Source: Alphaproteobacteria bacterium (GTDB lineage: Bacteria; Pseudomonadota; Alphaproteobacteria; Holosporales; JBOFFI01). From it: a stretch of 47,467 nucleotides of DNA. The DNA is taken from contig JBOFKI010000005.1 of the NCBI GenBank assembly GCA_051657245.1, forward strand, positions 1-47,467, given 5' to 3'. Of this stretch, positions 22,065 to 23,915 are shown piece by piece. Every line of letters begins with the position of its first letter. The first letter of the stretch is position 1. The notes beneath the pieces are model-generated. The model did not search any database. It worked only from the letters and a program-made list of their open reading frames with translations, and was not told the origin of the DNA. The translations under genes and the position numbers were made by a program.

Positions 22065-23915
22065 TTGCTCATTAAAAAGTCGTGGTACCATGCATGGATT
22101 TTAGCGGTTCTTGCAGGATGTGGTGCCGAGAAAGCAGAAAAACCCGTCACCCAAGGGCCAGCCTCTTATTTAAACAAAAAACGCGAAGCTTCTCCCTGCT
22201 ATGGTTATCTCCAGCAGGCTAAACAGAAAATCAAAAAAGGCAAGCTTTCTGAGGCCTCACGTCTTATTAATGTTGCGCTTCAAAGCTATCCCCGTATGGG
22301 TAAGCTTCACTTGATGAATGGGCTGATTTATGAAGCCATGATGGATAAAGGTGCAGATGATAAATCTGAGCTGGTGACCGTTGCTTATGAGACTGCTTTC
22401 TCGCTGGATCCAACAGATTTTCATGCCGCCTATTTCATGGGGCGTTTTAAGCTGAAGAAGAAAGATTACATTGGCGCTCAAGATTTTTTGGCTCAGGCCT
22501 TGCTGCTGAACCCAGACGACACCACGGCGCTACATGATTTAGCTGTTGCGTCTTATTATGCCCAAGATCTGGAGGTGGCCCGGGGAAGTGTAAAAAAGCT
22601 TTTATCCCTGGTCAGCAATAAAAAAGCTTCGCTCAAACCGCTTTTCTATCGAACGGCTGCCATGGTGTTTGCGGCAACGGGTGAAAAAGAACAGGCCCAG
22701 AAAAATTTGGCTCACCTGGTCAACTTGGTTGGGGGCAAAGACCCAGATATTCACTTTTTAAAGCGCCGGATGGAAGATTGGTTTCATTCCCACACCCACC
22801 CGAAGCGGCTTCAGCCCATTGCTGATGAGGATAGTAGTACAGCCCCTTTTGGTGGAGATCCATCCGCTCAGCCATTGCAAAACCCAGCTCAGCAGCCTCG
22901 GCAAGGAGGGCACGGAGCCCTGCCCCAAGGAGCCGCCCCCGAAAAACCCGAAAAAGAAACTCAGCATGTGGTGATTTTGGATTGTTTTCTCCTGAGGGTC
23001 AGCGAAGAGACCGCTACATCTAAAGGCTCTAACATTTTAAATAATTTTACGGTGAGCCTGAAGCCGCAGTCTGCTGAGTATAATATGGTGAAAACAGGTG
23101 GTATTCCAACCCTTACCCAAACGTTTAATCGCAGCATCACTTGGAGTACAATTCTATACAATCTCAACATCGCTAACGCGGTGGACAAGCGCATTGAAGT
23201 GATTGCGCGGCCAACCCTCAGCACCTATGAAAAGAAAAAATCGACTTTCTTTTCAGGGAACACCATTAGAGGAGGAATCTCGGGTACCACAGGAGGGAGT
23301 ATCGGCGAGGTTCAAACAGGCATTACCTTAGAGGTGACGCCTTTGGAAGTTCAAGAAGACAAGAACAAAACCTTGTTGGATATTTCCCTGGAAGGTTCTA
23401 TTTTAAGTGGCGAGCCGGTAAACGGATCTGCTTCCATTGCAAACCAGACATTTGAGATTTCTAAAACCAAGGCTACGACAACCCTGAAGCTGAAATTTGG
23501 GGAAACTGGGATGTTGGGCGGCATTTATGAGCGGGTCACCAAACAAGATAAAGATGGTGTCCCCCTTCTCCAGGACATTCCTTTTCTGCAATACCTTTTT
23601 TCCCAAGAGACCACGTCTGATTTGCGGAAATATGTGGTCTTTTTTGTAACCCCTCGGAATGCGAAAATTGTGAGGGATGCGATGAAATCCCCCTCAAGCA
23701 TTGAGGCGCGGCGGAAAGAACAGCCAAATGTTCGAGAACTGCTTGCGAAGGGATGTGGTTGGGACCAGACGCCTTCCAATATTTCCATCATTTTTAAGGG
23801 GGTTGCAAAACTTAACCGAGAATTTAGGACTGGCGACGTTATTCCACTTTTTTGGGGGACAGAGCCAGATTGGGATACACACATCGAGCAAGTCAGCGCA
23901 TTTCTTTATTTCTAA
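22065..23915 (+). CDS. Lipoprotein with an N-terminal TPR domain fused to a secretin core (type II/III secretion system secretin family)
   Basis: TTG start with an upstream aagggga RBS. Lipobox VLAGC. TPR-like helical repeats span about aa 40-230 and a P/Q-rich linker spans about aa 245-300. The secretin signature is GITLEVTP...GETGMLGGI...GVPLLQDIPFLQYLFSQ...VVFFVTPR, and the C-terminus ends in an aromatic residue (..FLYF). Confidence 0.75.
   Translation: MLIKKSWYHAWILAVLAGCGAEKAEKPVTQGPASYLNKKREASPCYGYLQQAKQKIKKGKLSEASRLINVALQSYPRMGKLHLMNGLIYEAMMDKGADDKSELVTVAYETAFSLDPTDFHAAYFMGRFKLKKKDYIGAQDFLAQALLLNPDDTTALHDLAVASYYAQDLEVARGSVKKLLSLVSNKKASLKPLFYRTAAMVFAATGEKEQAQKNLAHLVNLVGGKDPDIHFLKRRMEDWFHSHTHPKRLQPIADEDSSTAPFGGDPSAQPLQNPAQQPRQGGHGALPQGAAPEKPEKETQHVVILDCFLLRVSEETATSKGSNILNNFTVSLKPQSAEYNMVKTGGIPTLTQTFNRSITWSTILYNLNIANAVDKRIEVIARPTLSTYEKKKSTFFSGNTIRGGISGTTGGSIGEVQTGITLEVTPLEVQEDKNKTLLDISLEGSILSGEPVNGSASIANQTFEISKTKATTTLKLKFGETGMLGGIYERVTKQDKDGVPLLQDIPFLQYLFSQETTSDLRKYVVFFVTPRNAKIVRDAMKSPSSIEARRKEQPNVRELLAKGCGWDQTPSNISIIFKGVAKLNREFRTGDVIPLFWGTEPDWDTHIEQVSAFLYF

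Follow-up and report, generated by a model that had tools for sequence, protein, structure and literature searches.

The window analysed here is a stretch of 47,467 nucleotides (contig JBOFKI010000005.1 of assembly GCA_051657245.1) from an uncultured, deep-branching alphaproteobacterium, whose alanyl-tRNA synthetase shares no more than 58-60% identity with its counterpart in any named species. It contains a gene for a protein of 616 amino acids, here called the TPR-secretin, in which a lipoprotein signal peptide, a module of tetratricopeptide repeats (TPR), a flexible linker and a secretin domain follow each other on one chain. The first-pass annotation had described this open reading frame (ORF) at 22065..23915 on the forward strand, with its VLAGC lipobox, its repeats, a P/Q-rich linker, the secretin domain and an aromatic end, and all of these elements were recovered. 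Its central claim, that a lipidated TPR protein and a secretin are fused in one polypeptide, was borne out by domain matches and by a structural model. The coordinates of the parts and of the flanking features are collected in Table 1.

The lipobox cysteine is conserved in at least 90% of 40 aligned homologues. Among full-length family representatives, 147 of 178 have a lipobox-like motif, and aspartate was found at position +2 in one of 107. Because a lipobox is present and aspartate is missing at +2, the usual sorting rule would direct the mature protein to the outer membrane. Modelled on its own with AlphaFold2 (AF2), the TPR module reached a predicted local distance difference test score (pLDDT) of 90.7. 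In the AlphaFold model of the protein, structure is all-beta from residue 302, straight after the linker, and no alpha/beta N-domain lies in between. No Pfam match to Secretin_N, STN, AMIN or BON was obtained in the protein, and no N0 or N1-N3 domain was seen. The first-pass annotation had noticed that N0/N1, AMIN and BON domains were not evident, and both Pfam and the model agree with it. Classical PilQ proteins ranking last among the hits of the homology search (P0044-P0049) do carry such domains (PF03958, PF11741, PF07660).

The secretin domain itself was matched by PF00263 with 93.2 bits against a cutoff of 27.5 (E 1.7e-26), and the same domain is present in all 40 homologues. Foldseek returned GspD, InvG, PilQ, RcpA, BfpB and pIV, which together cover all secretin classes, with a probability of 1.0 and E-values from 9e-13 to 1e-9; the model of the core is of moderate confidence only (pLDDT ~66-88). 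A profile of the family, compared with PDB sequences, scored 98 bits with GspD, 82 bits with RcpA (8odn, of which only the core aligns) and 76 bits with PilQ, and the canonical secretin motifs align. By domain match and by predicted fold, the TPR-secretin is a member of the secretin superfamily. The C-terminal domain behind the core is found at the position of the S-domain in other secretins and gave no Pfam match over aa 533-616. It contains the conserved residues R588, G590, D591 and W597, and the window protein ends in FLYF. A terminal tripeptide L-[YFW]-[YF] is found in most of the 178 members, with both last residues aromatic in 141.

Table 1. The TPR-secretin gene, its parts and flanking features in the window (nucleotide positions count from the first letter of the window)
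Feature	Position	Residues	Strand	Basis and remarks
Sec-signal protein with F-box-like motif and LRR_6 repeats	20444..21523		+	LRR_6 E 1.2e-40; F-box 17.7 bits vs 20.5; upstream of the TPR-secretin, candidate cargo, context only
Promoter-like site TTTACA-16-TAAAAT	22008..22035		+	Consensus scan, 10/12 matches; pattern match only
Ribosome-binding site AGGGGA	22050..22055		+	9 nt 5' of the TTG start; read from sequence
TPR-secretin lipoprotein coding sequence, complete (616 aa + stop)	22065..23915	1-616	+	ORF list; TTG start; orthologues at 79-90% identity
Lipoprotein signal peptide, lipobox LAGC (Cys19, Gly at +2)	22065..22121	1-19	+	Translation
TPR module, ~12 helices / ~6 repeats	22194..22796	44-244	+	Pfam TPR_19/TPR_2; AlphaFold model
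Disordered P/Q/G-rich linker	22797..22964	245-300	+	pLDDT <50 for aa 248-298; length and sequence vary across the family
Secretin core	22965..23660	301-532	+	Pfam PF00263 match aa 374-531 (nt 23184-23657)
Family-specific C-terminal domain	23661..23912	533-616 (84 aa)	+	Conserved alignment columns; mostly helical in model (low confidence)
tRNA-Cys gene	24002..24075		+	ARAGORN + Rfam; directly 3' of the TPR-secretin gene, marks the downstream end of the transcription unit

The TPR-secretin is a real gene under strong purifying selection. The ratio of non-synonymous to synonymous substitution rates (dN/dS) over the whole gene is ~0.09, namely 0.095 in comparison with the orthologue at the related locus L007 (90% identical) and 0.077 in comparison with that at L005 (79-81% identical). 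Broken down by region against L007, the ratio is 0.057 for aa 1-247 (signal peptide and TPR), 0.093 for the secretin core and 0.069 for the C-terminal domain, and the linker is the least constrained region (0.37 vs 0.06-0.09 elsewhere). This pattern matches what would be expected of three folded parts and one flexible tether. A pseudogene or a mis-called ORF was ruled out by the low dN/dS together with the conserved full length. The L007 and L005 orthologues have the same start position as the window gene, and their translations begin with L too. A gap of 540 bp separates the gene from its upstream neighbour and the tRNA-Cys gene follows directly downstream, so that the gene is most likely monocistronic. 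Promoter-like sites are no more numerous in the region than in shuffled sequence according to the consensus scan. The intergenic sequence at 21524-22064 contains a 20-nt direct repeat (21614-21633 / 21806-21825, 95% identical) and an imperfect inverted repeat of 28 nt (21780-21807 / 21909-21936), and gave no match in Rfam.

Assignment to one of the established secretin families was not supported. No NCBIfam model reached its cutoff for the family. The best NCBIfam match for the core was PilQ (TIGR02515), with 84.4 bits against a cutoff of 284 and without the AMIN, N0 and N1 domains that belong to it; GspD (TIGR02517) aligned with the core only and scored 56.2 bits against a cutoff of 351. Of the Tad secretin RcpA/CpaC, again the core alone aligns, and tad neighbours are missing. 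By score cutoffs, N-domains and operon context, the TPR-secretin thus fails to qualify as a GspD, PilQ, RcpA or SctC-type secretin. A finer placement by hidden Markov models (HMMs) was tried and rejected, as the PilQ, SctC and GspD models match all 40 members at similar E-values and the order among PDB sequences is GspD > RcpA > PilQ. An origin from phage, as for pIV, was ruled out, since its neighbourhood in the host is made up of housekeeping genes and lacks phage genes.

The architecture is not confined to this organism. The first-pass annotation had considered that fusions of this kind might prove common and already belong to a characterised system; they are indeed common, but are assigned to no such system. 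An exhaustive profile search at E<=1e-30 yielded 685 clusters (50% identity), of which the best 150 are nearly all full length and cover the profile from ~10 to 625, and a word-indexed search found ~43 full-length clusters of the same architecture. Among GTDB species representatives, scanned with a profile built from 9 sequences, at least 60 species in four phylum- or class-level groups carry a member. Carriers were found in Alphaproteobacteria (Rhodospirillales, Terasakiella, Thalassospiraceae), Betaproteobacteria (Rhodocyclaceae, Sulfuricella, Gallionellaceae, Comamonadaceae, Thiobacillus), Gammaproteobacteria (Glaciecola punicea, Colwellia, Thiogranum, Woeseiaceae) and in Elusimicrobia together with some deltaproteobacterial metagenome-assembled genomes. 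Named examples are Glaciecola punicea ACAM 611 (GPUN_1973), Terasakiella brassicae (WP_188661358.1) and Roseiterribacter gracilis (WP_420243201.1). A metagenome scan returned members at 25-38% identity only, and the exact protein was absent from the contig index. Public databases annotate members as 'hypothetical protein' (RefSeq) or 'secretin-like domain-containing protein' (UniProt), and no description of the architecture was found in the open-access literature. What appears to be new, as judged from sequence comparison, is a TPR-fused lipoprotein secretin without N-domains that is assigned to no characterised system; should it form a stand-alone route of secretion, it would represent a new category altogether. 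Tandem TPR-secretin paralogues occur at two related loci (L006:8171-11860 and L033:9935-13761), and the pair at L006 is followed by an 864-aa signal-peptide protein without a Pfam match.

The proposal that the TPR module resembles a pilotin was supported in part. Like the pilotins PilF/PilW, Tgl and TadD, the protein is a lipoprotein with ~5-6 TPRs (Cys19 in the lipobox, ~12 helices), and the PilW/PilF model is the TPR family matched by most members (28/40). The resemblance does not appear to be specific to pilotins, however. The PilW/PilF match is always far under the cutoff, and in the window protein TIGR02521 scored 32.9 bits against 154 (E 4.5e-8), with an alignment that begins at the lipobox. 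When the TPR-only model was searched with Foldseek, designed TPRs, MamA and OGT ranked first; PilF (2fi7) was 34th, with a template modelling score of 0.65-0.67 over 215 columns and an E-value of 5.9e-6, and TadD was not among the top 50 matches.

The first-pass annotation had also called the protein a possible self-piloting orphan secretin, and the genomic context agrees with the orphan status. In the 47-kb window, no type II secretion system (T2SS) or pilus genes and no glycosyltransferase or synthase genes were found, the ORFs of at least 150 aa being housekeeping, transport and adhesin genes only. The prepilin motif (class III signal) is absent from all six frames of the window. Related loci were examined with 10 kb per side where available; ORFs were called and clustered, and secretins at least 90% identical were collapsed, which left ~115 loci. 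None of these contained a member of a GspE/PilB-like ATPase or GspF-like platform cluster, whereas the same clusters were found in 8 of 14 conventional-secretin loci from the same GTDB scan, which served as a positive control. The sole trace of a machine gene was an ATPase-like fragment of 215 aa at the outer end of the Elusimicrobia locus L046. A Pfam census of 89 immediate neighbours counted pentapeptide repeats 19 times, TAXI/NMT1_3 binding proteins 11 times and trypsin-like proteases 5 times, the rest being singletons; no family of T2SS, type IV pilus (T4P) or Tad systems and no glycosyltransferase was among them. A signal-peptide-like N-terminus was predicted, with a crude predictor, for 54% of adjacent genes versus 30% of genes at least three positions away (Fisher p = 4e-6).

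The related loci fall into three classes. In 38 loci, a pentapeptide-repeat protein or a TAXI binding protein lies within two genes; a pentapeptide-repeat protein of 260-340 aa with a signal peptide or lipobox is encoded immediately downstream, and a TAXI binding protein often upstream. Nearby genes sometimes encode additional binding proteins, symporters, a DcaP-like porin or a fusion of a binding protein with MscS. At L108:2303-4078, and also at L115, L122, L123, L125 and L145, the TAXI (NMT1_3) and pentapeptide-repeat domains are fused in a 592-aa protein beside the TPR-secretin, as seen in some lake metagenomes, and by its domain composition this fusion is a putative functional link between the two commonest neighbours. 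The betaproteobacterial loci L015, L023 and L066 encode a fusion of Peripla_BP_6 with an MscS-type channel (~950-1100 aa) near the TPR-secretin. A second class, comprising 33 loci, has large Sec-signal proteins with lectin-type modules, namely jacalin (~900 aa), ricin-B (giants of ~2600 aa), tectonin and hemopexin. Eight Elusimicrobia loci (L030, L031, L038, L039, L044, L046, L052, L054) share a conserved unit of a giant ~2600-aa protein, the TPR-secretin and a trypsin-like protease; the giants have a signal peptide, a ricin-B-like module and a Cys-containing conserved C-terminus (...LLELTK/LLDLVK). From its gene content, this unit looks like a set of cargo, gate and processing protease. The solitary class of 29 loci, in which the TPR-secretin stands alone among housekeeping genes, includes the window and its nearest relatives. 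In 16 further loci the flanks were too short to classify, and one locus has both neighbour types. A cargo domain shared by all of these was sought and rejected: HMMs built from four large-neighbour families match their own modular relatives only, and neither the leucine-rich repeat (LRR) protein, the 199-aa lipoprotein nor the cadherin/RTX protein of the window.

Upstream of the TPR-secretin, the window encodes a eukaryote-like protein with a signal-peptide-like N-terminus and at least six LRR_6 repeats. The label 'F-box/LRR' given to it earlier is solid for the repeats, but the F-box match is below its threshold. This gene is found upstream of the TPR-secretin only in L007 and L008 and is absent in the 79%-identical L005. 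The orthologues measure 435 aa in L007 and 397 aa in L008, and these different lengths are consistent with different repeat numbers. Its sequence suggests a host-associated lifestyle and a fast-evolving effector. Downstream, between tRNA-Cys and psd-pssA, a lipoprotein of 199 aa (lipobox LSGC, 24107-24706, forward strand) occupies the same position in L007-L009 and gave no Pfam or NCBIfam match. Elsewhere in the window, a protein of 1312 aa that combines four cadherin domains with RTX calcium-binding repeats (37542-41480, reverse strand) looks like an adhesin secreted by a type I secretion system, and genes for such a system were not seen among the large ORFs of the window. A single 591-aa ORF at 29300-31075 (forward strand) joins an ABC-3 permease (ZnuB-like) to a ZnuA-type periplasmic binding domain, an unusual fusion, and adjoins an ABC ATPase gene at 28428-29288. 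At the window edge, a DDE_3 transposase fragment of 167 aa (673-1176, forward strand) lies beside smpB and ftsH.

Among known systems, the closest structural precedent is the RcpA-TadD pair (CpaC-CpaO) of Tad pili, in which a compact secretin is joined by a ring of TPR lipoproteins at the periplasmic face of the outer membrane; here, a lipidated TPR module, a core and a conserved C-terminal tail are likewise combined. In that pair, the TPR groove of TadD receives the four C-terminal residues of RcpA, a contact that is essential for assembly (PMC10499894). By analogy, the L-Y-[YF] tail could play the role of the RcpA tail. The differences are that everything lies on one polypeptide here, that the N-terminal domains of RcpA are absent and that no tad genes are near in any locus. 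The type IVa pilus pair of PilQ with PilF/PilW/Tgl is also similar, as PilQ and PilW are the best NCBIfam matches of the core and the TPR, respectively, and PilF superposes on the TPR module; however, the scores are far below cutoffs, and AMIN, N0 and N1 domains, pilMNOP neighbours and a pilin motif in the window are missing. Taken by analogy, the way the TPR-secretin works would be closest to that of an RcpA-TadD or PilQ-PilF pair merged into a single chain.

Other systems share single traits. The liposecretins HxcQ, BfpB, TcpC and PilN have an N-terminal lipid anchor on the secretin itself. They retain N0/N3-type domains and sit in operons of T2SS or type IVb pili, without a TPR module, whereas the TPR-secretin has neither such domains nor such an operon, but does have the TPR module. 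For HxcQ, a passage in PMC12475490 cites that the lipid anchor suffices for self-piloting. The PilQ nozzle of Arthrospira co-purifies with a pentapeptide-repeat protein of 30 kDa, which was modelled as its lower ring (PMC12475490). A tie between a pentapeptide-repeat protein and a secretin may recur in the present family, where such proteins, 260-340 aa long, are the most common immediate neighbours. The nozzle contains a full-length PilQ, though, and the window copy is without a pentapeptide-repeat neighbour. Finally, BcsC, PgaA, PelB and AlgK/AlgE also join a periplasmic TPR scaffold to an outer-membrane conduit, in one protein or as a lipoprotein pair. Their conduit is a monomeric barrel of 16-18 strands encoded in a synthase operon, in contrast to the secretin core without synthase neighbours found here.

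Our preferred reading, to which we would give about even chances, is that the TPR-secretin is a self-contained liposecretin that operates independently of a type IV filament machine, with its TPR module serving in cis as pilotin or scaffold. As judged from the lipobox and the residue at +2, the protein would be exported by Sec, lipidated at Cys19 and delivered by Lol to the inner leaflet of the outer membrane. Intact motifs and the predicted fold suggest that the core (aa 301-532) oligomerises into a gated double-barrel channel. The lipid-anchored six-TPR module, held in cis by a flexible linker of ~55 aa, might then form the pilotin or scaffold ring that other secretins obtain from separate lipoproteins (PilF/PilW/Tgl, TadD). 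By analogy, it may also grip the conserved C-terminal L-Y-[YF] tail, either of its own protomer or of an adjacent one, in the way that TadD grips the last four residues of RcpA. N0 is the usual contact point of secretins for inner-membrane partners. Because N0-N3 and AMIN domains are missing and no ATPase, platform or pilin genes lie beside the relatives, the channel most likely runs without an inner-membrane machine of the type IV filament kind and would be a stand-alone gate for periplasmic material. In the relatives, the pentapeptide-repeat neighbour is a possible periplasmic partner that replaces the missing N-domain rings, and the large Sec-exported neighbours with lectin modules are suggested as cargo or partner. 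By their predicted domains, the lectin-module neighbours would argue for export of large Sec-delivered proteins, and the binding-protein and transporter neighbours would be compatible with import or exchange.

Several points weigh against this proposal. For a gated secretin that lacks a motor, it is not obvious what would power export. The TPR resemblance to pilotins appears generic, as judged by the Foldseek ranks and HMM scores given above. In the monomer model, the C-terminal tail is not docked with confidence on the TPR (pLDDT ~40-50 for aa 568-616), and four members (P0015-18) end in MDS yet retain the conserved TPR residues, which weakens the tail-clamp idea. The window copy has neither type of recurrent partner, so that inference from relatives may not transfer to it. 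The evidence on machine genes covers the 47-kb window and the ~10-kb flanks of relatives and leaves room for a distant cognate machine.

A bolder proposal, which we regard as doubtful, is that TPR-secretins are the single outer-membrane component of an unrecognised, pilus-independent secretion route, a secretin counterpart of two-partner secretion. The TPR module would both pilot the channel and recognise a Sec-exported cargo encoded next door, with no need for an ATPase, a pseudopilus or an N-domain ring. Candidate cargoes would be the giant lectin-module proteins, the pentapeptide-repeat proteins and perhaps also, in the lineage of the window, the F-box-like/LRR protein. The narrower idea that the channel is a dedicated gate for this last protein, released to act in a eukaryotic host, is very improbable. 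The LRR protein, whose N-terminus resembles a signal peptide, is encoded by the gene just upstream on the same strand, and the two genes remain adjacent in L007 and L008, where the number of LRRs seems to vary; relatives, too, often adjoin a Sec-exported repeat or lectin protein. Nevertheless, the link proved weak, although the first-pass annotation had named the protein, speculatively, as an obvious candidate for passage: the adjacency is limited to these closest relatives and missing from L005 as well as from remoter members of the clade, the two genes are separated by 540 bp and have separate promoter-like sites, the F-box match is below threshold and no LRR protein is found among the 89 neighbours elsewhere.

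An unlikely but more conventional explanation is that the protein is the outer-membrane secretin of an ordinary Tad, T4P or T2SS machine encoded elsewhere, which has absorbed its pilotin by fusion and is coupled to the inner membrane through a separate N-domain-like or alignment protein. Its core is equidistant from PilQ, GspD and SctC in all 40 members (E down to 1e-23) and scores 82 bits with RcpA, its TPR is matched most often by the PilW/PilF pilotin model, Tad systems already divide N-terminal secretin-like functions among separate proteins, and the window represents just 47 kb of a genome. On the other hand, the ~115 loci have no such machine genes alongside, where conventional secretins usually have them, and the N0 domain, the usual contact for GspC, PilP and RcpC-type partners, is missing. 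Tandem paralogues (L006, L033) and conserved non-pilus neighbours do not fit either, and hosts such as Glaciecola presumably carry complete pilus secretins of their own. Export of a polymer such as exopolysaccharide or slime, with the TPR guiding it to the pore in a secretin-based analogue of BcsC, PgaA, PelB or AlgK/AlgE, is improbable. A TPR fused to an outer-membrane channel is the hallmark of synthase-dependent polysaccharide export, and the TPR-secretin shares it. A passage of PMC12475490 cites AlgK and AlgE and reports secretins as necessary for slime secretion in cyanobacteria and myxobacteria, which also counts for a polymer, as does the pentapeptide-repeat protein, a part of the Arthrospira nozzle and the commonest neighbour here. 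Weak HMM matches to PrsT (24/40 members) and BcsC (one member) point in the same direction, but are generic TPR similarity far under cutoffs, and no glycosyltransferase, synthase, Wza/Wzc or polysaccharide-modifying gene was found in the 89 immediate neighbours or the window. The same low probability is given to a gated outer-membrane channel for entry or exchange, which would supply binding proteins of the periplasm and secondary transporters in import or sensing. The largest context class would favour it, as the gene is flanked there by TAXI (NMT1_3) and SBP_bac_3 binding proteins, an SDF symporter, a cNMP-binding DASS-type transporter, the Peripla_BP_6-MscS fusion and a DcaP-like porin, as would the 592-aa TAXI-pentapeptide fusion; secretins can serve uptake, and NCBIfam names HofQ a 'DNA uptake porin'. 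This transporter context is absent from the window and its closest relatives, however, the lectin-module giants, with or without a trypsin-like protease, point to export, and no specific solute can be named.

To our knowledge, all secretins studied to date form the outer-membrane end of some larger machine, be it a T2SS, a type III secretion system, a type IV or Tad pilus or filamentous phage export. Studied secretins join their machine through N-terminal ring domains, and most require a separate pilotin. If the TPR-secretin works alone, this would challenge the view of secretins as always being parts of machines, and the opening of a gated secretin without a piston would become directly testable. 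It would also offer a minimal system for studies of secretin assembly, and would point to a route, so far unrecognised, by which large lectin-type proteins and, in host-associated lineages, eukaryote-like effectors are exported or taken up.

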